A stretch of 64,000 nt of DNA from a bacterium (GTDB lineage Bacteria > Patescibacteriota > Minisyncoccia > Phycocordibacterales > VMGT01): the NCBI GenBank assembly GCA_030697645.1, contig JAUYPI010000018.1, forward strand, positions 10,457-74,456, given 5' to 3'. The notes beneath the pieces are model-generated. The model worked only from the letters and a program-made list of their open reading frames with translations, ran no database searches and was not told the origin of the DNA. How positions within the stretch are numbered: the stretch's first letter is position 1; each line of letters opens with the position of its first letter. The translations under genes and the position numbers were made by a program. Shown here piece after piece: positions 3,140 to 61,484 of this stretch.

Positions 3140-3384
3140 TACACAATGTTTACACAATTTCCAATTTCTAACTTCTGATTTTTGAGTACGGACTTACCTC
3201 AATTCGAAATCAGAAATTAAAAATCCGAAGTTGCGTTAGCAAAATTCGAATTTGCGTCAGCGGTTTGCACAATTTTCAATTTTCAAGGGCCCAATTTTCA
3301 AACACGACCGTCGTCGTTATTGAGTCATTGACACATTAAAAATTGATTGAAAATTGCAAAATTGAAAATTGGAAATTAAGTGAT
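3140..3384. repeat. Composite palindromic heptad-repeat region: a degenerate arm at 3140-3262 plus a canonical A-type palindrome at 3271-3377
   Basis: AATTTTCAATTTTCAA...CAAACACGACCGTCGTCG...ATTGAGTCATTGACACATT...GAAAATTGCAAAATTGAAAATT. It sits between two minus-strand sugar-nucleotide genes. Confidence 0.8.
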
Positions 3385-4436: not shown

Positions 4437-5300
4437 ATGTTCGTCGGCTTTAAGAAAAATATTCGCTCCTACGCACTCGTGGCGCTTTTTGCCGTGACCG
4501 TCTTTGTCTGGTACGCCGCGCTCCGCGAGGAGCGCGGCGGCGTGCTCTCCGTGGCATTCCTCGACGTAGGGCAGGGCGACGCGGCCCTGATTGAGAGCCC
4601 GACTGGCCGCCAGGTGCTCATTGACGGCGGGCCGGGGAGGAGCGTGCTCCGCGCCTTGGGGCGCACTATGCCTTTCTTCGACCGCTCGATTGACGTCGTA
4701 ATTGCAACGCACCCAGACCAGGACCACATCGGCGGGCTGCCGGAGGTGCTTGCGCGCTATCGCGTTTCGCATATCCTCGAGCCGGGCGTCGCTGCGGACA
4801 CGGCCGTGTACGGTGCGTTTGCAGAGAGCGTCCGAATCGAGGGTGCGGAACACATACTCGCACGGCGCGGGCAGAAAATCGAGCTTGGCGGCGGGGCGTA
4901 CCTCGACATTCTCTTCCCGGACCGCGACGCAGGCGGCCTCGAGACGAATACCGCCTCTGTCGTTCTAAAGCTCACCTATGGCGCGACCTCATTCCTCCTC
5001 ACCGGCGACTCGCCGAAGCAAATCGAGGAATACCTCGCGGCGCTCGACGGCGAAGCGCTCGACGTTGACGTCCTAAAGGCCGGGCACCATGGCTCGAAGA
5101 CGTCGACGTCAGACTACCTCCTCGGCCTTGCCTCGCCTGCCTATGCCGTGATCTCGGCCGGGCATGACAACCGCTACGGCCATCCGCACCGGGAGGTGCT
5201 CGACGCACTGGCACGTTTCGGAGTCAAGCCCCTCGGCACGTATGAGCGAGGCACCATCATTTTTGAGAGCGACGGCAGGGAGGTGCGGCTGAAGAAATAG
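4437..5300 (+). CDS. ComEC/Rec2-family metallo-beta-lactamase domain protein (competence-related), with a single N-terminal TM
   Basis: VAFLDVGQGDAALIE, HPDQDHIGG and KAGHHGSKTSTS motifs match the ComEC C-terminal MBL domain. The ORF-track start at 4419 lies inside the terminal repeat of the upstream element, so the next ATG is used. Confidence 0.8.
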   Translation: MFVGFKKNIRSYALVALFAVTVFVWYAALREERGGVLSVAFLDVGQGDAALIESPTGRQVLIDGGPGRSVLRALGRTMPFFDRSIDVVIATHPDQDHIGGLPEVLARYRVSHILEPGVAADTAVYGAFAESVRIEGAEHILARRGQKIELGGGAYLDILFPDRDAGGLETNTASVVLKLTYGATSFLLTGDSPKQIEEYLAALDGEALDVDVLKAGHHGSKTSTSDYLLGLASPAYAVISAGHDNRYGHPHREVLDALARFGVKPLGTYERGTIIFESDGREVRLKK

Positions 5301-10772: not shown

Positions 10773-12359
10773 ATGGGTGACTACAGCGCTTATTTTCGCG
10801 GCAAGCAGATTACGCTAATAGGCCTGGGGCTTCTTGGGCGCGGTGTTAATGTGGCGAAGTTTCTTGCGGAGTGTGGGGCGGATATGCTCGTGACCGATTT
10901 GAAAACGAAGGATCAGCTTCAGCCGTCGCTTAAAAAACTCGCGCGGTTTAAGAATATTCGCTTCGTGCTCGGCGAGCACCGACTCGAGAACTTCCGGGGT
11001 GTCGACATGGTGATCAAGGCCGCGGGCGTGCCGCTTGATTCGCCGTTTATCGCCGAGGCTCGCTCACATGGCGTGCCGGTCAAAATGGACGCGTCACTCT
11101 TTGCCGAGCTCGCGCCGCCCGGCGTGCTTCTTGTCGGCATTACCGGAACGCGCGGGAAGTCAACGACGACGCAGTTGCTCTACGAGGTGCTAAACGACTG
11201 GCGTAAGGTATTAGGTGTTAGGTATCAGGTTGGCGGACGTTCCGGCCACGAACTCCCCAGTTACCAGTTACCAGTTACCAGTCCCTCGCGGTCACATCGC
11301 GTCTTCCTCGGCGGTAACATCCGTGGCATGGCAACCCTGCCACTCCTCAAAAAAGTCCGCCCTGGCGACATCGTCGTTCTCGAGCTCGACTCGTGGCAGC
11401 TTCAGGGCTTCGGCGAGGCGAAGATCAGTCCGCACGTTGCGGTTTTTACGACATTTTTCGATGACCACCTTAATTACTATGATAGGGACCGCGGACGTTA
11501 TTTGAAGGATAAGGCAAACATTTTTACATACCAAAGTGGCGTAAAAAATTTTCAATTTTCAATTTTCAATTTTCAAACTCGGCCAGTATTGATTGTGGGC
11601 GCACAGGCGGCACCTTTGATACGCAAACATTTTGCGGAGCACGCACAGCGGATGAAGGTGGTGCGGCCGAGCAATGTACCGAAAAATTGGAAGCTCGCGA
11701 TTCCTGGCGAGCATAATCGCGCGAATGCTGCCTCGGCGCTCGTGGCGGCGGATGCACTTGGTGTGCCGCGTTCGGTCAGCAAGCGCGCTATTACTTCTTT
11801 TCATGGTCTCCCCGGTCGCCTCGAGCTCGTGCGAGAGCTCCGCGGCGTCAAAATTTATAACGACACGTGTGCGACGACTCCGGAGGCAACGATCGCCGCG
11901 CTCCGCGCGCTCGGCAGACTAAGCAGCAAGCAGCAAGCAGCAAGCAGCAAGGTCCATCGGATAATTCTTATTATGGGTGGAGCGGACAAAGGGCTCGACA
12001 TGTCGGGGCTGCTCAAGGAGATTCCAAGGTATTGCAGAGCAGTTATTTGGCTTCCGGGTACTGGCACAAATAGAATTATGAAGCATGAATCAAGAAGCAT
12101 GGAAACGGAAGCAATAATTCATTATTCCAAATTCTTGATTCAAGAGATGTACACAACCACACTGAGCGCGGCAATAAAGCAGGCGGTCCTTGTCGCAAGG
12201 AAGGGGGATAGTATTCTCTTCAGCCCCGCCTTCGCCTCATTCGGCATGTTCAAGAATGAGTACGACCGGGGAGAAAAATTTAATCGCGCGGTAGCGGCCC
12301 GTAAAGACACGACCCGCGCGAAGGCGCGGGTCAGTAGAATGCAACATAACGAATCTTAA
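10773..12359 (+). CDS. murD: UDP-N-acetylmuramoyl-L-alanine--D-glutamate ligase, enlarged by three in-frame heptanucleotide-repeat insertions
   Basis: Mur ligase ATP motif GITGTRGKSTTT, central and C-terminal Mur ligase domains (GGADKG, SPAFASFGMF). At 528 aa it is longer than a typical ~450 aa MurD. The coding sequence contains (TTACCAG)3 at 11261-11283, (AATTTTC)4 at 11547-11576 and (CAAGCAG)4-5 at 11921-11951. Confidence 0.85.
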   Translation: MGDYSAYFRGKQITLIGLGLLGRGVNVAKFLAECGADMLVTDLKTKDQLQPSLKKLARFKNIRFVLGEHRLENFRGVDMVIKAAGVPLDSPFIAEARSHGVPVKMDASLFAELAPPGVLLVGITGTRGKSTTTQLLYEVLNDWRKVLGVRYQVGGRSGHELPSYQLPVTSPSRSHRVFLGGNIRGMATLPLLKKVRPGDIVVLELDSWQLQGFGEAKISPHVAVFTTFFDDHLNYYDRDRGRYLKDKANIFTYQSGVKNFQFSIFNFQTRPVLIVGAQAAPLIRKHFAEHAQRMKVVRPSNVPKNWKLAIPGEHNRANAASALVAADALGVPRSVSKRAITSFHGLPGRLELVRELRGVKIYNDTCATTPEATIAALRALGRLSSKQQAASSKVHRIILIMGGADKGLDMSGLLKEIPRYCRAVIWLPGTGTNRIMKHESRSMETEAIIHYSKFLIQEMYTTTLSAAIKQAVLVARKGDSILFSPAFASFGMFKNEYDRGEKFNRAVAARKDTTRAKARVSRMQHNES

Positions 12360-13513
12360 ACACGTAACTTGGTGAGCAAACTGCGTGCTTGCTGCTCCGC
12401 CCATTCAATCGCGCTGAAAAGCGACACCACATCGTTCGCTTCGTACGGCGTATGTAGTCGCATCACGCCTTGGATACCGAGCGGAATCTGGTGAAATCCA
12501 ATGGAGCGGTCGAGAAATGCCCGCACAAAAACATCATTCGCCGCGCACATCACCGCTGGCATGGTGCCGCCGATTTTCGCCGCCTCGTAGGCCAGACTGA
12601 CGCACGGGAAACGATCGGTATCGCATGGCTCAAAGGTGAGTTCTCCTGGTGCGTCAAACAATGAAAATTTTGTTGCGTTGTGTACGGGGCGCCGCTGTGG
12701 GTACAGAAGCGCGTACTGAATGGGAATACGCATGTCCGGCACGCTCAGCTGGGCAAGGGTTGTTCCGTCTTTGAATGCCACCATGGAGTGGATGATTGAC
12801 TCAGGGTGAACCACTATATCTATCCGCTCCGGAGGAATCTCAAAGAGATGCATCACCTCAATCACCTCAAAACCCTTGTTCATCAGCGTTGCTGAGTCAA
12901 CGGTGATCTTCGGACCCATTTTCCAGGTGGGGTGCTTGAGGGCCTGTAGAGGTGTCACGCGCTCGAGTTTTCTTTTGGGGGTTTTGCGGAACGGCCCCCC
13001 TGAAGCCGTGAGGATAAGTCGTGCGACTGATTCTCGCGGCACTCCCTCGAGGCACTGAAAGATGGCGCTCGGTTCCGAGTCCACCGGAAGGATCCACGCC
13101 CCGTATTTTTTTGCGGTTTCCATCGTGAGGACTCCAGCCGCGACCATGGTTTCTTTGTTCGCGAGCGCCATGTCCTTTCCTTTTCCGAGCGCGGCAAGAG
13201 TGGGCTTGATTCCAGCAACCCCGACAATGCCGTTGACCACGAGATCGGCCTCTCCGAGAGTCGCGAGTTGTGCAAGCCCCGCTTCCCCCACAAACACCGG
13301 GATTGATACCTCCGGTATTAAAATTTTTGCCTGCGATGGATCGCTGACCGCGACGACTTGGGGCCGAAATTCCTTGATCTGTTTATACAACAGGGCGATT
13401 TTTTGGTGCGTGGAAAGAGCAACTATTTCGAGCAGATCAGGGTTATTTCGCACCACATCAAGTGTTTGCGTTCCGATAGAACCGGTTGATCCTAAAACGG
13501 TAAGTTTTTTCAT
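12356..13513 (-). CDS. dxr: 1-deoxy-D-xylulose 5-phosphate reductoisomerase
   Basis: N-terminal GSTGSIGTQTLDV NADPH motif and conserved Dxr core (ANKE, LPVDSEPSAI, HPTW) along the full length. Confidence 0.9.
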   Translation of the reverse strand: MKKLTVLGSTGSIGTQTLDVVRNNPDLLEIVALSTHQKIALLYKQIKEFRPQVVAVSDPSQAKILIPEVSIPVFVGEAGLAQLATLGEADLVVNGIVGVAGIKPTLAALGKGKDMALANKETMVAAGVLTMETAKKYGAWILPVDSEPSAIFQCLEGVPRESVARLILTASGGPFRKTPKRKLERVTPLQALKHPTWKMGPKITVDSATLMNKGFEVIEVMHLFEIPPERIDIVVHPESIIHSMVAFKDGTTLAQLSVPDMRIPIQYALLYPQRRPVHNATKFSLFDAPGELTFEPCDTDRFPCVSLAYEAAKIGGTMPAVMCAANDVFVRAFLDRSIGFHQIPLGIQGVMRLHTPYEANDVVSLFSAIEWAEQQARSLLTKLRV

Positions 13514-17726: not shown

Positions 17727-17817
17727 TGTATCTTGTATTTTGTATTTCGTAGTTTGTATAAAAGCTGAATCTCGCTATACAAAATACGAGATACAAGATA
17801 CGAAATACAAGCTACAA
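17727..17817. promoter_or_regulatory. Long imperfect AT-rich palindrome between rny and the HU gene
   Basis: GTATCTTGTATTTTGTATTTCGTAGTTTGTATA ... TATACAAAATACGAGATACAAGATACGAAATACAAGCTACAAG, imperfectly complementary arms around 17767. Confidence 0.4.
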
Positions 17818-17818
17818 G

Positions 17819-19348
17819 TTACCGCGCGAACTCTATCGCCCTGGTCTCGCGAATCACGGTTACTTTGATCTCTCCCGGAAATTTGAGCTCCTGCTCGACG
17901 CGTATTGCGATCTCGCGCGCGGTGGCGCGCGCCTCGGCGTCGGAGACGTCCTCGGGCTTCACAAAAATGCGTATCTCGCGGCCTGCCGAGAGGGCGAAGG
18001 ATTTTTCGATTCCCGGGAACGAGTTGGCGATCGCTTCGAGGTCTCCGAGGCGCTTGAGGTAGTTCTCTACGCTGTCGCGGCGCGCGCCGGGGCGGCCTCC
18101 GGAGATCGCGTCCGCGACTTGGACGATGATGGACTCGAGCGTCTCGTACGGGTATTCCTCATGGTGCGATTGCATGGCGAGAACGATCGCGGGGTCCACG
18201 TTGAACTTCTGAAGGATGCGTCGCCCGATCTCAACATGCGTACCTTGCACGTCGTGATCCACGGCCTTGCCGATATCGTGGAGGAGTGCCCCTGCGCGCG
18301 CGACAGCGGGGTTTGCGCCGACCTCCTCGGCGATCATGCCTGCGATATGGGCCATTTCGATTGAGTGCTGGAGCACGTTCTGTCCGTAGCTCGTGCGGAA
18401 ATGGAGGCGCCCCAGGATGCCGAGGAGCTTCGGGTCGAGGTTGAGCGCGCTGCACTCATAGGCGGCCTGCTCGCCTTTCTCTTTGATGATTTTACTGATG
18501 TCCGCCTGGGCTTTCTCAACAAGATCCTCGATCCGCGCGGGCTGGATTCTGCCGTCGAGGATGAGATTCTCGAGTGCGAGGCGCGCGACGTGGCGGCGCA
18601 CCGGATCAAAACAGGAGAGCGTGATCACCCCCGGCGTGTCGTCAACAATCACCTCGACGCCGGTTGCGCGCTCAAAGGCTTTGATATTGCGGCCCTCTTT
18701 GCCGATAATTTTTCCCTTGACGTCGTCCGAGGGGAGGGCCACGGTTGTCGCGAGCGTCTCCGAGGTGACGGCGTTCCCGAGCCTATGGATCGCGGTCGTG
18801 AGGATCTCGCGCGCGCGGCGCTCCAGGCGCTCGAGACCCGCGCTCTCGAGCTTCTGGACGCGCACCATCATGTCCTGGTCGAAATTTTTCTCGACCGTCG
18901 CGAGCAGTTCCGCGCGAGCCGCCTCCTCACTGAGACCCGCGACGCGCTCGAGCTCGCTCTGCTTGCGGCGCTCGAGTTCCTCGGCTCGCGCGCGTACCGC
19001 TTTTACCTCCTCGACTTTCTGCTTCACCCGCTCGACCTCGGCGTCAATCTCGCCTTGCCTGCGGTCGAGGAGTTCTTCTTTTTTAATAAAGCGCTCTTCG
19101 GTGCGTCTGAATTCGCCCTCACGGGTCTTCAGCGTGCGCTCGAATTCGGCCATCCCGACTTTTGCCTTTTCTTCTCCCTCGGCGACGATTTTTTGTGACT
19201 TTTCCTTGGCGTCAAGCATCATCTGCTTAATCGCAAGTTCCATCGAGCCCTTTTTTCCGAGCGAGACGATCCAGCGCAGGAAATATCCGAACGCTGTGCC
19301 TAGTAGGCCGGAGGCGGCGGCGAGAGCCAGTGCTATTTTAAGTGACAT
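17819..19348 (-). CDS. rny: ribonuclease Y
   Basis: N-terminal TM, long coiled-coil, KH domain (GKIIGKEGRNIK), and HD domain (HSIEMAHIAG...LLHDIGK). Confidence 0.9.
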   Translation of the reverse strand: MSLKIALALAAASGLLGTAFGYFLRWIVSLGKKGSMELAIKQMMLDAKEKSQKIVAEGEEKAKVGMAEFERTLKTREGEFRRTEERFIKKEELLDRRQGEIDAEVERVKQKVEEVKAVRARAEELERRKQSELERVAGLSEEAARAELLATVEKNFDQDMMVRVQKLESAGLERLERRAREILTTAIHRLGNAVTSETLATTVALPSDDVKGKIIGKEGRNIKAFERATGVEVIVDDTPGVITLSCFDPVRRHVARLALENLILDGRIQPARIEDLVEKAQADISKIIKEKGEQAAYECSALNLDPKLLGILGRLHFRTSYGQNVLQHSIEMAHIAGMIAEEVGANPAVARAGALLHDIGKAVDHDVQGTHVEIGRRILQKFNVDPAIVLAMQSHHEEYPYETLESIIVQVADAISGGRPGARRDSVENYLKRLGDLEAIANSFPGIEKSFALSAGREIRIFVKPEDVSDAEARATAREIAIRVEQELKFPGEIKVTVIRETRAIEFAR

Positions 19349-20243: not shown

Positions 20244-20372
20244 AATTTTCAATTTCTAATTTTCAATCAATTTTCAATTATTCAATTTTCAAACACGAAC
20301 GGCGCGCCACCGTCATTGGATCATTGTAACATTGAAAATTTATTGGAAATTGAAAATTGTAAATTGAAAATT
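20244..20372. repeat. Palindromic heptad-repeat element, A-type, ending 4 nt before the pilB ATG
   Basis: AATTTTCAATTTCTAATTTTCAATCAATTTTCAATTATTCAATTTTCAAACACGAACGGCGCGCCACCGTCATTGGATCATTGTAACATTGAAAATTTATTGGAAATTGAAAATTGTAAATTGAAAATT. Confidence 0.85.
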
Positions 20373-22145: not shown

Positions 22146-22265
22146 AAATTTTCAATTTTCAATTTTGCAATTTTCAATCAATTTTGCAATGACTCAATTT
22201 TCAAACACGAACGACGTCGTCGTCATTGAGACGTTGAAAATTTATTGAAAATTGAAAATTGAGAA
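22146..22265. repeat. Palindromic heptad-repeat element, A-type, between pilB and pilC
   Basis: AAATTTTCAATTTTCAATTTTGCAATTTTCAATCAATTTTGCAATGACTCAATTTTCAAACACGAACGACGTCGTCGTCATTGAGACGTTGAAAATTTATTGAAAATTGAAAATTGAGAATTGGAAATTG. Confidence 0.85.
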
Positions 22266-22283
22266 TTGGAAATTGCGATAGCT

Positions 22284-23539: not shown

Positions 23540-23657
23540 AATTTTCAATTTACAATTTTCAATTTTCATTAAATTTTCAATTCCTCAATTTTCAAACACG
23601 AACGACGCCGCCGGCATTGAATCATTGACACATTGAAAATTGCAAAATTGAAAATTT
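23540..23657. repeat. Palindromic heptad-repeat element, A-type
   Basis: GAATTTTCAATTTACAATTTTCAATTTTCATTAAATTTTCAATTCCTCAATTTTCAAACACGAACGACGCCGCCGGCATTGAATCATTGACACATTGAAAATTGCAAAATTGAAAATTT. Confidence 0.85.
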
Positions 23658-24190: not shown

Positions 24191-24308
24191 AATTTTCAAT
24201 TTACAATTTTCAATCAATTTTCAATTACCCAATTCTCAAACACGACGCCGTCCGTAATTGAGTCATTGAAACATTGAAAATTTATTGAAAATTGAGAATT
24301 GGAAATTT
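24191..24308. repeat. Palindromic heptad-repeat element, A-type
   Basis: AATTTTCAATTTACAATTTTCAATCAATTTTCAATTACCCAATTCTCAAACACGACGCCGTCCGTAATTGAGTCATTGAAACATTGAAAATTTATTGAAAATTGAGAATTGGAAATTT. Confidence 0.85.
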
Positions 24309-25367: not shown

Positions 25368-25660
25368 GAAATTTTCAATTTTCAATTTTGCAATTTTCAA
25401 TAAATTTTCAATGAATCAATTTTCAAACACGTAACCACTCACCTTCGTACACAACCGCGTAACAAAGCCGTCATTGCGAGGAGCAAGATCCCTTCGCTTC
25501 GCTCGGGACAGGCTCCGCAATTCAGAGTCAGTACGTAAAACCCCTGGATTGCTTCGCTCCTTTTAGTCGCTCGCAAAGACGGGCGTGAGTGATTACTCAA
25601 ACACGAACGGTGCCGTGGTCATTGAGACATTGAACCATTGAAAATTGCAAATTGAAAATT
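25368..25660. repeat. Palindromic heptad-repeat element, A-type, split by a nested 165-bp insertion
   Basis: The left arm ends ...CAATTTTCAAACACG at 25431 and the repeat resumes TCAAACACGAACGGTGCCGTGGTCATTGAGACATTGAACCATTGAAAATTGCAAATTGAAAATT at 25596, directly abutting the ATG at 25661. Confidence 0.85.
25431..25595. mobile_element. MITE-like insertion with 12-bp terminal inverted repeats (GTAACCACTCAC / GTGAGTGATTAC, one mismatch) and an 8-bp target-site duplication (TCAAACAC)
   Basis: Inverted-repeat ends and duplicated TCAAACAC on both flanks read directly from the sequence. The insertion interrupts an otherwise typical palindromic repeat at its core. Confidence 0.7.
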
Positions 25661-26213: not shown

Positions 26214-26327
26214 AAATTTTTAATTATCAATTTTGCAATTTTCAATCAATTTTCAATTACCCAATTTTCAAACACGACGCCGTCGTCATTGAGTCATTGA
26301 AACATTGAAAATTGTAAATTGAAAATT
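26214..26327. repeat. Palindromic heptad-repeat element, A-type, abutting the ATG at 26328
   Basis: AATTATCAATTTTGCAATTTTCAATCAATTTTCAATTACCCAATTTTCAAACACGACGCCGTCGTCATTGAGTCATTGAAACATTGAAAATTGTAAATTGAAAATT. Confidence 0.85.
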
Positions 26328-27620: not shown

Positions 27621-27660
27621 GGCGAATTTCCAATTTCCAATAACCAATTTCCAAACAATT
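27621..27660. repeat. Heptad-repeat fragment (B-type units) upstream of tpiA
   Basis: GAATTTCCAATTTCCAATAACCAATTTCCAAACAATTTTGC. The ORF track translates it as a spurious N-terminal extension of TpiA. Confidence 0.6.
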
Positions 27661-28493: not shown

Positions 28494-28625
28494 AATTTTC
28501 AATGCTCAATTTTCAATTTTCAATCAATTTTCAATTACTCAATTTTCAAACACGACGCAGCCCGTCTTTGAATCATTGGGACATTGAAAATTTATTGGAA
28601 ATTGGAAATTGGAAATTGGAAATTT
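28494..28625. repeat. Palindromic heptad-repeat element, hybrid: A-type left arm and B-type right arm (GGAAATTGGAAATTGGAAATT)
   Basis: GAATTTTCAATGCTCAATTTTCAATTTTCAATCAATTTTCAATTACTCAATTTTCAAACACGACGCAGCCCGTCTTTGAATCATTGGGACATTGAAAATTTATTGGAAATTGGAAATTGGAAATTGGAAATTT. Confidence 0.85.
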
Positions 28626-31347: not shown

Positions 31348-31508
31348 AGAAGTTCTGCGCTAGAAGTCATGGTATGATTACAGTGTAGCATACTGACGCA
31401 AAATATGCTCCAGCTCTTTCCACAATTTCGTATTCATTCGCTTCCAGCGCCGCGGTTTGGAAGTTGGAGGTCATAATTTTAGCGCATAATGCAAAATAAC
31501 ACAGTAAA

Positions 31509-31667
31509 AATTCCAAGCTCCAACCAACAAATTCCACGTAAATTCCAAGCTCCAAAAAACAAGCTCCAAACAAATTCCAATGATTCAAATTCCAATTTCC
31601 AAACACGCACGTTTGAGATTTGGAGTTTGAGATTTGTTTGGAAATTGTTTTTTGGAATTTGGAAATT
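31509..31667. repeat. Palindromic heptad-repeat element, B-type, upstream of smpB
   Basis: AATTCCAAGCTCCAACCAACAAATTCCACGTAAATTCCAAGCTCCAAAAAACAAGCTCCAAACAAATTCCAATGATTCAAATTCCAATTTCCAAACACGCACGTTTGAGATTTGGAGTTTGAGATTTGTTTGGAAATTGTTTTTTGGAATTTGGAAATT. Confidence 0.85.
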
Positions 31668-32163: not shown

Positions 32164-32199
32164 CCAGCACCACTTTTACGCTTGTAAAAGTGGTGCTGG
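32164..32199 (+). terminator. Perfect 16-bp hairpin between smpB and the tmRNA 5' end
   Basis: CCAGCACCACTTTTAC-GCTTG-GTAAAAGTGGTGCTGG. Its 3' arm runs directly into the GGGGATG acceptor of ssrA. Confidence 0.5.
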
Positions 32200-32609
32200 G
32201 GATGATTGGTCTTGACAAAAGAATACGCCCGTGAGGTGCGCAGGAGTGCTCCGACATCACTTAAAAAGGCCGGAACCAATACGTGCCAAGAACACTCTTG
32301 CACGAGCAAAGTCTATTCTTTCTCCCTATTTTGGGGTAAGCGACTTTGCTCTCGCATACGCCTAAAGCCGCGTCAGCGGTTTTCACGTCTGCGACGCTTG
32401 TTCTCTTTGACGCCCGATAAGACCGAACGAGTGTAATAAAAATTCGGACTGGAGCGCCGCGTGTCCCGCGCAGCGCTCAAGATTCTAGGGACGGCACGCT
32501 CGGTGAGATTTTGCTTGTTTCTCACTCGCCAGTGTATAAAAACAAGCTACCCTGCGTAGATGCCTCAGAGCAATTCTTTTGCACCCGGGTTCGACTCCCG
32601 GCATCTCCA
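32198..32609 (+). ncRNA. ssrA: tmRNA (transfer-messenger RNA)
   Basis: 5' GGGGATGATTGGTCTTGAC (tRNA-like domain acceptor and D-analogue), 3' GGGTTCGACTCCCGGCATCTCCA (T-arm and acceptor), with a G3.U70 wobble as in tRNA-Ala. It follows smpB. A candidate tag reading frame is GCAAAG...GCCTAA at 32306-32365. CCA is not encoded. Confidence 0.85.
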
Positions 32610-32712
32610 CTCGACTCGCCCCTCCTCGCGGAGGGGCGCGCTCGTAACGCTCGTAAAAAAACGAGGCGTTAAAAACAGCATACGTAAGTTACCCTGTCTT
32701 TTTGATGAACTT
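32605..32712 (+). repeat. Direct repeat copy 1 (about 107 bp): the last few nt of ssrA plus the downstream terminator region
   Basis: CTCCACTCGACTCGCCCCTCCTCGCGGAGGGGCGCGCTCGTAACGCTCGTAAAAAAACGAGGCGTTAAAAACAGCATACGTAAGTTACCCTGTCTTTTTGATGAACTT is duplicated with one SNP at 34183-34289. Confidence 0.85.
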
Positions 32713-56455: not shown

Positions 56456-56905
56456 ATGAGATTTTTAGGCATTGACTATGGCACGAAACACGTTGGGATC
56501 GCGATTTCCGATGAGCGGGGAGCGGTTGCGTTTCCGAAGGCGGTGCTTGTGAACATTCCCGGCGTCGTTGATGAGATCGCAGCTCTGGCGCAGGCGGAGG
56601 GAGTTCAGGGCGTCGTGGTCGGAGAATCGCGTCGCGCGGATGGGGGAGAGAATGCGCTTCAGCGCGAGATAGTTCGATTTAAACACACGCTCGAGAGCGC
56701 GCTGCCGGGCGTGTCTGTTTCTCTACAGCACGAGGGGATGAGTACGCAGAGCGCGCGGGTGGCGCCTAAGGCGCGGCGTGGCGTTCTCTCGCGAGAGCGC
56801 CGCGCTCCGGCGGCCGCGGCGCGTCGGCGTGAGCCCGCTGATGCTCGTGCCGCGGCAGTGATTTTACAGCGGTTTCTTGATCGACAGTCTCACACTAAAA
56901 GCTAG
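56456..56905 (+). CDS. ruvX: RuvX/YqgF-family putative pre-16S rRNA nuclease (Holliday-junction-resolvase-like)
   Basis: FLGIDYGTKHVGIAISD N-terminal RNase H-like motif and conserved acidic residues. Arg-rich C-terminal tail. Confidence 0.8.
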   Translation: MRFLGIDYGTKHVGIAISDERGAVAFPKAVLVNIPGVVDEIAALAQAEGVQGVVVGESRRADGGENALQREIVRFKHTLESALPGVSVSLQHEGMSTQSARVAPKARRGVLSRERRAPAAAARRREPADARAAAVILQRFLDRQSHTKS

Positions 56906-56930
56906 AAGCTAACAGCTAAAAGCTAAGTCC

Positions 56931-57370: not shown

Positions 57371-57510
57371 AATTTCCAAATTCCAAAAAACAAGTTCCAA
57401 ACAAATCACAATACTCAAAATCCAATTTCCAAACACGACGTGCGTGTTTGGGATTTGATGCATTGAAATTTGAAATTTGTTTGGAACTTGTTGGTTGGAG
57501 CTTGGAGTTT
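57371..57510. repeat. Palindromic heptad-repeat element, B-type, upstream of pilM
   Basis: AATTTCCAAATTCCAAAAAACAAGTTCCAAACAAATCACAATACTCAAAATCCAATTTCCAAACACGACGTGCGTGTTTGGGATTTGATGCATTGAAATTTGAAATTTGTTTGGAACTTGTTGGTTGGAGCTTGGAGTTT. Confidence 0.85.
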
Positions 57511-59487: not shown

Positions 59488-59612
59488 AATTTTCAATTTT
59501 GCAATTTTCAATCAATTTTGCAATGACACAATTTTCAAACACGACGTCGTCCGTCATTGAGCATTGAAACATTGAAAATTCATTGAAAATTGCAAAATTG
59601 AAAATTGTAAAT
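59488..59612. repeat. Palindromic heptad-repeat element, A-type, upstream of the pilO-like gene
   Basis: AAATTTTCAATTTTGCAATTTTCAATCAATTTTGCAATGACACAATTTTCAAACACGACGTCGTCCGTCATTGAGCATTGAAACATTGAAAATTCATTGAAAATTGCAAAATTGAAAATTGTAAATT. Confidence 0.85.
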
Positions 59613-59708
59613 TCTTGGACTTGATTTGACATTTGGCATTAATGCACGGTCACATTTTTGGTGTTTGGCGACTTGTATATTTGCTATTTTGATTTGTACT
59701 TTGTATCC

Positions 59709-60851: not shown

Positions 60852-60923
60852 CCCCTCGTAGCTCAATGGACAGAGCCGCGGACTTCTAAGCCGCTGATGG
60901 GGGTTCGATTCCCTCCGAGGGGA
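60852..60923 (+). tRNA. tRNA-Arg (anticodon TCT)
   Basis: Acceptor CCCCTCG/CGAGGGG, D-arm GCTCAATGGACAGAGC, anticodon loop CTTCTAA, T-arm GGGGGTTCGATTCCCTC. No CCA. Confidence 0.8.
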
Positions 60924-60969
60924 TAGAAAGGTTTTGCGAAGAAGGAGCGGCCAAAAAAACTCAGCTGCC

Positions 60970-61046
60970 GGACGATTAGCTCAGTTGGCTAGAGCGCTGC
61001 TTTTACACAGCAGAGGCCGGAGGTTCGAGCCCTCCATCGTCCACCA
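60970..61046 (+). tRNA. tRNA-Val (anticodon TAC), CCA encoded
   Basis: Acceptor GGACGAT/ATCGTCC, anticodon stem-loop CTGCT-TTTACAC-AGCAG, T-arm GGAGGTTCGAGCCCTCC, ACCA. Confidence 0.85.
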
Positions 61047-61198
61047 GAATTTTTAAGTGCGGTTAATTGCTTGCGTGAAAACACGCACACTGTGGTGAGT
61101 TCTGGCCCGCAGCGACGCAATCGCTGCAGGGCTTTTCTTTTTGTGTTTTTCTTGATAGAAATTGGATAGGACGTGCCGCTGTTTTGAAAGTCAAACAC

Positions 61199-61380
61199 GC
61201 ACCCTTAGCTCAGCTGGCTAGAGCGTTCGTTCATCCCGTTAGAAAGCGTGGGCACTTAGCTCAGTTGGTAGAGCGTTCCCTTCACACGGGAGAGGCCACA
61301 GGTTCGAGTCCTGTAGTGCCCATTGCTTTCTAACGGGACGAGCACGCGAGAGGCCGTAGGTTCGAGTCCTACAGGGTGCA
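61199..61380 (+). tRNA. Split tRNA-like gene (182 nt): canonical acceptor, D- and T-arms, but the anticodon region is occupied by a 13-bp helix bearing a complete tRNA. The anticodon cannot be assigned
   Basis: 5' GCACCCT-TA-GCTCAGCTGGCTAGAGC and 3' GTAGGTTCGAGTCCTAC-AGGGTGC-A form a perfect acceptor and T-arm. Between them lie TTCGTTCAT-CCCGTTAGAAAGC-GT-[tRNA-Val]-TT-GCTTTCTAACGGG-ACGAGCACGCGAG. Confidence 0.6.
61250..61322 (+). tRNA. tRNA-Val (anticodon CAC), nested inside the split tRNA-like gene
   Basis: Acceptor GGGCACT/AGTGCCC, D-arm GCTCAGTTGGTAGAGC, anticodon stem-loop TTCCC-TTCACAC-GGGAG, variable AGGCC, T-arm ACAGGTTCGAGTCCTGT, discriminator A. Confidence 0.85.
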
Positions 61381-61413
61381 TCGAAACGCTACACAAGCTG
61401 CGCGAAATACTTC

Positions 61414-61484
61414 GGGCTCATAGTAAAGTGGTATTACGCGGCATTCGCATTGCCGAGTCCCGGGTTCGATTCCCGGTGAGTCCA
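61414..61484 (+). tRNA. tRNA-Ala (anticodon CGC), G3.U70 present
   Basis: Acceptor GGGCTCA/TGAGTCC with a G3.U70 wobble, D-arm GTAAAGTGGTATTAC, anticodon stem-loop CGGCA-TTCGCAT-TGCCG, T-arm CCGGGTTCGATTCCCGG. Confidence 0.8.

Follow-up and report, generated by a model that had tools for sequence, protein, structure and literature searches.

Perfect heptanucleotide arrays in murD of a candidate phyla radiation bacterium: probably fixed loop inserts derived from dispersed repeats

The murD gene in a 64-kb stretch of contig JAUYPI010000018.1, from an uncultured, ultrasmall Patescibacteriota bacterium (the whole stretch analysed is called the window below), carries several perfect tandem repeats of seven nucleotides, and the question raised by this locus is what such repeats are doing inside the gene for a cell-wall ligase. 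A first, sequence-only reading took three of these tracts for a contingency locus that would switch the gene off and on. The analyses presented here point to another answer, to which we assign a probability of roughly 70%: the tracts, together with a palindromic insert in the same gene, are fixed, translated, in-frame inserts in four permissive surface loops, derived from dispersed repeats and kept perfect by concerted evolution.

The gene was identified as murD, encoding UDP-N-acetylmuramoyl-L-alanine--D-glutamate ligase. It occupies positions 10773-12359 of the forward strand as a single uninterrupted open reading frame (ORF) of 528 amino acids, in which the Pfam families MurD-like_N (PF21799), Mur_ligase_M (PF08245) and Mur_ligase_C (PF02875) were all found with scores over cut-off. 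The protein thus has the three-domain architecture of MurD, with a MurD-like N-terminal domain, a central ATP-binding domain with a P-loop (GTRGKST), and a C-terminal domain, and it contains the invariant Mur-ligase residues common to 116 homologues. The PDB chains closest by sequence were MurD (phmmer), and this ranking agreed with the structural comparison: an AlphaFold2 (AF2) model with a mean predicted local distance difference test (pLDDT) score of 89 and a predicted template modelling score of 0.89 had MurD structures as its top 33 Foldseek matches in the PDB (E-values of 5e-31 to 6e-22, TM-scores up to 0.79), followed by MurC. The exact protein has an entry in NCBI, under the name Mur ligase, from a metagenome-assembled genome (MAG) of an unclassified bacterium, and its relatives belong to the Paceibacteria/Parcubacteria of the candidate phyla radiation (CPR). 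Most of these relatives have 440-480 amino acids, which makes the window protein roughly 70-80 residues longer than usual, close to the 80 or so first proposed. The ratio of nonsynonymous to synonymous divergence (dN/dS) of the murD core was 0.15-0.18 against relatives, 0.15 being the figure for the window gene. These values indicate a functional gene under purifying selection, the product of which is a cytoplasmic housekeeping ligase of peptidoglycan precursors, and which is presumably essential in a CPR host.

Within this gene, Tandem Repeats Finder (TRF) called three perfect arrays (100% matches) on the forward strand: CCAGTTA x3.7 at 11257-11282, AATTTTC x4.3 at 11547-11576 and AAGCAGC x4.4 at 11921-11951, the first and last of which had been written before as TTACCAG and CAAGCAG. 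At 31%, 49% and 72% of the way along the ORF, they are translated as SYQLPVTSP, NFQFSIFNFQ and SKQQAASSK, respectively, so that TRF, Pfam and translation bear out the sequence-only reading of three in-frame heptamer tracts with low-complexity peptides in a recognisable MurD. An imperfect array, AGGTATT x3.6 (83% matches), was called upstream of the first one at 11206-11230. Perfect arrays with at least three copies numbered four at period 7 in the 64-kb window and none at periods 5, 6 and 8-15. Three of the four are inside murD, which makes up 2.5% of the window (binomial P of about 6e-5), and the 21-mers of each murD array had an expectation of 0 from shuffles. Internal arrays were absent, and lengths were normal, in RNase Y, Ugd, PGK, TIM, PilB/C and other genes of the window, and a scan for dips in GC content, covering the window for further AT-rich intragenic inserts, revealed no other array. 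At the RNA level, the AATTTTC and AAGCAGC arrays were unstructured (fold z-scores of +1.7 and +0.3). By our reading of the alignment, the AGGTATT and CCAGTTA arrays have a common core, GGTA/TACC, with 4/7 complementary positions; a hairpin between them was considered and rejected, given that the fold of the site-1 insert was weak and not significant (z -1.4).

The position of the arrays in the protein was determined by aligning it with 16, and then with 115, homologues, the family set being 116 Paceibacteria MurDs. Insert 1 (about 30 amino acids, residues ~142-175, positions 11196-11297) follows the helix after the P-loop, corresponds to a gap in 3lk7 and in short homologues, and is composed of two heptamer arrays with a 26-nt GC-rich spacer between them. 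Insert 2 (about 13 amino acids, residues ~255-270, positions 11535-11582) comes after the motif DKANIFxYQ and is the shortened left arm of an intergenic palindrome, while insert 3 (about 10 amino acids, residues ~382-396, positions 11916-11960), also a gap in homologues, lies between AALRALG and the IILIMGG strand. Insert 4 (residues ~435-458, positions 12075-12146) is AT-rich, with a GC content of 0.33-0.35, follows GTGT and extends about 12 amino acids beyond the family median loop of 18-19 residues. Its sequence forms a degenerate palindrome, the arms of which have a period of roughly 7 nt and include perfect inverted stretches of 11 bp at 12086-12096 and 12132-12142, and its hairpin had a z-score of -3.4, with none of 200 shuffles folding as well. 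An insert of this kind, RIMKHES...IIHNSKF, occurs in two of the more distant loci described below (L167 and L090). The four inserts and the C-terminal tail were the only parts of the AF2 model with poor or reduced confidence: pLDDT was below 50 at residues 153-169, 55-75 in the region of insert 2 (mean 55 for the block 261-270), 77-83 at site 3 and on average 53 for the block 441-450. As modelled, then, the inserts of this single ORF would all fall in non-core segments at loops that vary within the family, with the frame kept, and their peptides are predicted to be disordered loop filler with no catalytic role. The AGGTATT array, the AT-rich hairpin insert and the C-terminal tail of 18 residues are features beyond those of the sequence-only reading.

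The same loops are variable across the family. Among the 116 MurDs, loops exceeding the median by more than six residues were counted 25 times at site 1, 8 times at site 2, 31 times at site 3, the most often expanded, and 12 times at site 4. Inserts of other lineages often resemble translated palindromes (for example EVRP...GLTS), and in 131 distinct MurD ORFs with available DNA, half of the long loop inserts (16/32) folded as hairpins with z-scores of -2 or lower, which indicates that these loops gather palindromic repeats generally. The four MurD loops are therefore structurally permissive and gather short or palindromic repeats throughout Paceibacteria.

The closest relatives of the window protein were P0002 (loci L081-L087; 66% amino acid identity, the sister lineage), P0003 (L085) and P0004 (L166), and the more distant informative loci were L007, L088, L089, L090 and L167. 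All of these were found to carry perfect arrays at the same loops, with about 3.4-4.9 copies and mostly other units: AGATACA, CAATTTT, AAACCAG and ATTGGAA in L081; TCAAAGG and CTAAAAG in L085; AACCGGG and ATACAAA in L166; and AATTTCA, TTCAAAA and the 8-nt units CAACGAAG and AAGCAAAA in L007. Heptamer arrays were lacking in 79 of 80 more distant genome loci, and on this count a general Paceibacteria trait was rejected. In a rough neighbour-joining tree, array-bearing murD genes fell into at least three clades, interleaved with array-free genes. P0005 (L168), basal in the clade of the window (clade A), has no arrays, and most Paceibacteria MurDs do without the inserts. Further elements were noted in two of the relatives. 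In L081 (8001-9584; P0002/P0122) the N-terminal domain has an extra insert of about 43 amino acids, YPTTELSRLPRFSPQHPVFSRRSASLRSSSTPDVFPKSGKREDLPP, a fifth site that is absent from the window, and the annotated start of this MurD is probably 15 codons too far downstream. In L088, site 2 (4649-4800) holds a palindrome-like element, ggaaaactc...gagttttcc, some 100 nt long and placed directly after or inside the CAACGAAG 8-mer array, and at site 3 (~5240-5290) an 18-bp perfect palindrome, cgacattctaacattctt/aagaatgttagaatgtcg (z -9), replaces the 8-mer array of L007; these nested palindromes recall the small repeats within Nostoc heptamer arrays.

The proposal that murD is a contingency locus, in which slipped-strand mispairing would reversibly switch the gene and peptidoglycan synthesis off and on as a form of bet-hedging, draws on a unit length that is not a multiple of three, on perfect arrays far above chance, on the presence of several tracts per gene, which would multiply the switching rate, and on unit-wide substitutions between lineages, which show misalignment events over evolutionary time. 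It is formally true that the slip of a single unit frameshifts murD, as does a change of two units; a change of three units (21 nt), on the other hand, keeps the frame. Characterised switches based on simple sequence repeats (SSRs) use much longer tracts, and the 3.7-4.4 units of murD, although far above chance for the genome, are short beside them. Switching rate climbs with repeat number, which according to a review of phase variation determines the rate, and phase-variable genes are often non-essential (PMC11868660). The murD tracts are found mid-gene in a cytoplasmic housekeeping enzyme with a dN/dS of 0.15, rather than in a dispensable surface, host-interaction or restriction-modification gene. 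Copy numbers are close to 4.4 everywhere, even in intergenic arms, where frame is irrelevant.

Comparison among assemblies revealed neither length polymorphism of the arrays nor ON and OFF alleles. The window protein recurs unchanged in two MAG records at NCBI (proteins MDZ4284580.1 and MDP3735629.1), while a look-up of its own contigs for population variants returned no record. In the sister lineage, four assemblies agree in every base of the gene, and neither the arrays nor their copy numbers differ in two more metagenome contigs. In the P0011 cluster, five variants have unchanged array peptides, and the only place where they differ in length is an N-terminal palindromic insert, through an indel of 21 nt. 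None of the nine distinct array-bearing lineages recovered was out of frame. A sister-cluster member of 210 amino acids starting just after the AATTTTC array was considered as an OFF allele and rejected, as it is a contig-end fragment. With short mid-gene tracts, a dN/dS of 0.15, no length variants and all alleles in frame, the contingency-locus architecture is not supported, and a switch of this kind appears very unlikely; the murD data lend no support to phase-variable cell-wall synthesis. The two outcomes that the sequence-only reading had named as speaking against a switch, invariant tracts and loops shared with homologues, are largely what was found, at the level of assemblies. In-frame length polymorphism does exist in such inserts, as the P0011 cluster shows, and not at the heptamer arrays: P0011 and P0125 differ from P0123 and P0126 (at least 90% identical) by a 7-aa in-frame indel in a GC-rich palindromic insert, SAEGGSPPGGGRGASGG versus SAEGGSASGG.

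The same comparison bears on the suspicion that the arrays are an assembly or sequencing artefact, or that murD is a decaying pseudogene. Repeats can break or mis-join short-read assemblies, and a sister contig does end about 17 nt after its AATTTTC array. However, independent assemblies give identical sequences, several lineages have homologous arrays, and the uninterrupted ORF combines all invariant Mur-ligase residues with a low dN/dS, which leaves next to no probability for such an explanation.

The origin of the inserts was most directly revealed at site 2. The insert aligns with the left arm of eight intergenic copies of a palindrome; the alignment reaches the junction CAATTTTCAAAC.CG and is interrupted by an internal deletion. 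A nearly complete palindrome arm is present at site 2 of L085. These alignments support the earlier suggestion that the AATTTTC tract represents a fragment of the intergenic palindrome. The donor palindrome, of about 120 nt, occupies all the gaps between genes of the type IV pilus cluster (19.7-28.6 kb), and 23 matches of the AATTTTC unit were found in the window, mostly in intergenic palindromes. An array with a 7-nt unit passes through all three reading frames, and the survival of stop-free arrays alone would explain why coding sequence shows only AATTTTC or ATTGGAA: the AATTTTC orientation alone is stop-free in all three frames, while ATTGAAA, the other arm, contains TGA. In accordance with this, the other arm was found in coding sequence either as ATTGGAA (L081 site 4) or with fewer than three units (L085 site 4).

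Arrays of the relatives could also be matched to dispersed families. The TRF table of the window was dominated by period 7, with the families AATTTTC/ATTGAAA, TGTATTT/ATACAAG, CTAAAAG and AATTTCC/ATTGGAA. An arm of the TGTATTT/ATACAAG palindrome, which occurs at 17727-17822 of the window and at 11544-11640 of L083, matches two murD units of the relatives: CAAGATA at site 1 of L081, which is ATACAAG in another rotation, and ATACAAA at site 4 of L166. The units CTAAAAG, CTATAAG, CTAACAG and CTAGAAA at site 3 of L085 match intergenic arrays at 56895-56926 of the window and at 10863-10892 of L083, and a TAA to TAT change in L085 removes the sole stop. Within the 64 kb, AATTTTC has family members, and CCAGTTA and AAGCAGC have no match; from the arrays of the relatives we infer for these two units as well a derivation from dispersed repeats.

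Regarding the later history of the arrays, the synonymous divergence (dS) between the window and L081 is 0.71, at which the probability that 30 neutral bases stay unchanged in one lineage is about 2e-5. The seven arrays, therefore, cannot all be perfect by passive inheritance, even at the dN of the core. At site 1, the inserts of the window and L081 share the flank gttggcg.acg.tccg, and both arrays start 27-28 nt further on, with CCAG. The window has CCAGTTA x3.7, while L081 has CCAGATA followed by CAAGATA x3, with 5/7 positions the same and the first unit of L081 intermediate. At site 2 the L081 array is identical to the AATTTTC array of the window, within the same shortened arm. Recent recombination was considered as the cause of this identity and rejected: synonymous differences nearby (0.12-0.32), though fewer than in the C-terminal domain (0.54-0.67), are well above zero. 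At site 3, AGCAGCA in the window and ACCAGAA in L081 (AAACCAG x4.7) share 5/7 positions in the best register. L007 and L088 (75% nucleotide identity) do not differ in their arrays at sites 1 and 2, and at site 4 ATTCAAA stands against ATTCCAA, with one base changed in every unit, in register in the codon alignment. Differences of one or two bases that recur in all copies of a unit, as in the pairs compared, indicate concerted evolution, and the turnover of units thus appears, from these sequence comparisons, to be at least partly an in-place homogenisation of inherited arrays.

The alternative that each lineage gained or expanded its array separately at the same loop, for instance by adding 21 nt beside an existing unit, accommodates several of the observations: array-bearing genes in at least three clades of the tree among array-free ones, the young look of perfect arrays, the same array families at unrelated loci in different genomes, and the fact that a gain of three units would leave the frame intact and yield about 4.x copies. 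Such independent recent origins are nevertheless unlikely in view of the homologous site-1 flanks in clade A, with arrays at the same offset and the same CCAG, of the same shortened arm at site 2 in the window and L081, and of the arrays that L007 and L088 share at sites 1, 2 and 4. Moreover, about 4.4 copies are also typical of intergenic arms.

The preferred explanation of fixed, homogenised inserts would then comprise the following steps. The inserts would have been built from short dispersed repeats, namely heptamer arrays of about 31 nt and palindrome arms that are themselves heptamer arrays. The survivors would be those insertions that fell in tolerant loops, kept the frame and were stop-free in all three frames. 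Once inserted, an array would evolve in concert, a base change spreading to all units by misaligned repair or length-conserving slippage; by such spread, the unit would drift between lineages without its arrays losing their perfection. The homogenisation could proceed by short-patch repair, with a misaligned neighbouring unit as template, or by slips that compensate one another in pairs. The tracts would accordingly be a mutational liability purged by selection, not a regulated switch, and the repeats themselves would be selfish or neutral in nature.

Several observations weigh against this explanation. The roughly 70 other genes of the window have no perfect arrays, and in the relatives, where 2-13 kb around murD was sampled and the gene itself is a small part of that, all but one of the perfect 7- or 8-nt arrays lie inside murD; random colonisation leaves this bias unexplained, and the permissiveness of the loops accounts for where inserts survive in MurD, not for why murD outcollects other genes. 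A dispersed origin was demonstrated for site 2 only, with no second copy of CCAGTTA and AAGCAGC in the window. The arrays in coding sequence surpass the intergenic arms in perfection, which is the opposite of what free slippage would give, and the length-conserving mechanism of homogenisation is postulated. In addition, the agreement at 5/7 positions for site 3 was obtained by choosing among seven rotations, could arise by chance with a probability of about 0.09, and is weak evidence by itself.

This enrichment, and the persistence of perfect arrays at the same four loops across dS values of 0.7-1.0, would suit an adaptive diversification, in which the arrays let MurD loops change fast, for example in escaping an inhibitor or partner, or else act as binding sites at the RNA or DNA level. 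The unit sequences, and hence the peptides, differ between close lineages, and a unit change alters residues in all three frames. On the other hand, NFQFSIFNFQ is the sole peptide conserved between lineages, the modelled loops have low confidence and no predicted contact surface, and the four murD tracts are unrelated in sequence and so offer no common nucleic-acid binding motif. The basal P0005 and most Paceibacteria also lack the inserts, and we know of no MurD inhibitor of the kind needed for loop escape. Adaptive diversification is thus an improbable, though not negligible, explanation. Similarly doubtful is a more far-reaching idea, that some active process in this Paceibacteria clade creates or renews, at fixed positions, perfect ~31-nt arrays with 7- or 8-nt units, with murD preferred, the rewriting of loops being selected (for example by a MurD-binding antagonist) or due to a new site-preferring repeat-generating enzyme. 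If it were true, the preference for about four units that these arrays share with the heptamer SSRs of Xanthomonas and Nostoc, here in units unable to form G-quadruplexes, would suggest that bacterial heptamer repeats have a mechanism in common.

The 3' end of murD also differs from that of its homologues, which stop at ...AVQGLR. The window protein continues for about 18 amino acids (12303-12359, forward strand), through a GC-rich hairpin at 12311-12332 (z -2.7), and the end of the gene lies 4 nt inside a convergent ORF of 385 amino acids (12356-13513, reverse strand), overlapping its stop; this ORF we take, judging from its sequence, to be dxr-like. The original murD stop was apparently lost, and a former bidirectional terminator at 12311-12332 is now apparently translated. 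Synonymous differences between the window and L081 affected 0.54-0.67 of identical-residue codons at residues ~417-528, as compared to 0.12-0.47 in the N-terminal and central parts. This roughly twofold higher divergence of the C-terminal part could reflect a mosaic or recombinant history of murD.

The dispersed repeats extend over much of the window. Copies of the ~120-nt palindrome were located at 20244-20372, 22147-22275, 23540-23656, 24191-24307, 25370-25660, 26215-26327, 28494-28624, 59488-59613 and 3270-3377. The element consists of (AATTTTC-like)n, AAACACGACG, a GC-rich loop and (CATTGAAA-like)n; it had a fold z-score of -2.8, and there is one copy per gap of the co-directional PilB, PilC and pilin cluster, and then before TIM and PGK. 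Rfam contained no family matching the arrays or the palindromes. In the copy at 25370-25660 the arms are about 180 nt apart. A second intergenic palindromic family was observed at 404-571, 31508-31636 and 57371-57504, with arms like AAATTCCAAGCTCCAAAAAACAAACTCCAAAC and TTTGGAGTTTG...GGAATTT. An array of AATTTCC x4.3 at 27625-27654 stands directly after the upstream stop, within an apparent N-terminal extension of TIM, and a perfect ATTGGAA x4.4 array at 28594-28624 stands at the apparent start of PGK; the starts of both ORFs were probably overcalled, the arrays presumably being 5' leaders. The TGTATTT/ATACAAG hairpin at 17727-17822, with arms (TGTATTT)n and (ATACAAG/ATACAAA)n, is positioned between convergent genes, downstream of RNase Y, and the family is also intergenic, at an unrelated locus, in the 66%-identical sister lineage. 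The array at 56895-56926 (CTAAAAG CTAGAAG CTAACAG CTAAAAG, ~33 nt) lies between ruvX, whose stop codon is inside it, and a downstream ORF with a tRNA-binding-like domain. Two other genomes have almost the same set of variant units at loci unrelated to this one, which gives the impression of a copied element rather than of local slippage. Ordinary features of the window are a tmRNA at 32198-32612 (90.9 bits against Rfam) and four clustered tRNA genes at 60852-61484.

Compared with known repeat systems, the murD arrays share with the phase-variable genes of Haemophilus, Neisseria and Campylobacter a perfect repeat within the ORF whose unit is not divisible by three (PMC11868660). They differ from these in being short and mid-gene, in belonging to a presumably essential cytoplasmic enzyme and in the lack of any length polymorphism or OFF allele among the assemblies. 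The intergenic AATTTTC donors, in turn, resemble REPINs, the doublets of repetitive extragenic palindromic (REP) sequences mobilised by REP-associated tyrosine transposases (RAYTs), in being many-copied hairpins of about 120 nt with two inverted arms (PMC3116915). Unlike REPINs, their arms are internally 7-nt periodic, and the murD copies are single arms or plain arrays. No transposase was detected among the 21 of about 75 window ORFs scanned against Pfam, a scan that included no search aimed at RAYT or IS200-like genes.

The nearest precedent for translated inserts of this sort is given by the Rickettsia palindromic elements (RPEs), which occur in frame within genes (Ogata et al., 2000, 2002; reviewed in PMC10969869). 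As with RPEs and comparable elements of the REP type or the miniature inverted-repeat transposable element type, the inserts of murD are short non-autonomous repeats, with intergenic family members in the case of AATTTTC, that are in frame, translated and tolerated in surface loops of a housekeeping protein, and site 4 of murD, like half of the other long MurD loop inserts of Paceibacteria, is a true hairpin. The differences are equally clear. RPEs are palindromes of about 100-150 bp, and the murD tracts are tandem arrays of 26-31 nt; a single palindrome arm is present at site 2; four or five inserts occupy one murD gene, whereas RPEs are scattered over many genes; and the host is a CPR bacterium, with no sequence relation to the RPE families. 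A hairpin like those of RPEs is formed in the window gene only by insert 4 and the C-terminal tail, not by the three arrays, which, being non-palindromic and much shorter, are not members of the RPE class. If the inserts are indeed of dispersed-repeat origin, selfish short repeats would colonise permissive loops of essential CPR enzymes much as RPEs do in Rickettsia. Part of the unusual length of some CPR proteins would thereby be explained, and annotators and structure modellers would be warned that such inserts are filler. A literature search for heptanucleotide repeats in CPR, Patescibacteria and Parcubacteria returned none.

Heptamers as such are also known from other bacteria. Families of short tandemly repeated repetitive (STRR) sequences were reportedly described in Calothrix, Anabaena and Nostoc by Mazel et al. 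in 1990. The heptameric SSRs of Xanthomonas (GGGAATC) and Nostoc show a preference for four units, attributed to G-quadruplex formation, are mostly intergenic and sometimes form inverted pairs, and those of Xanthomonas are not tied to the same genes in two species (PMC4692102). The repeats described here agree with them in their 7-nt units, in comprising several dispersed families mostly located between co-directional ORFs, with some inverted pairs capable of forming stem-loops and a minority inside genes, and in a length of about four units (3.4-4.9 in the perfect arrays of the window and its relatives, 4.3-4.7 in the imperfect intergenic arms). The murD arrays differ from them in lying in frame at several loops of a presumably essential enzyme and in persisting at orthologous sites with turnover of the unit; as such, at dS values of about 0.7-1.0, they offer a clean natural case of concerted evolution under reading-frame constraint. 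They also differ in their units, for CCAGTTA, AATTTTC and AAGCAGC have neither G-tracts nor the sequences of STRR1-3 and are not capable of forming G-quadruplexes. A four-unit preference in the absence of G-tracts therefore requires another explanation, which calls into question the G-quadruplex explanation given for Xanthomonas and Nostoc and hints at a general mechanism for the known excess of heptamer repeats in bacteria.

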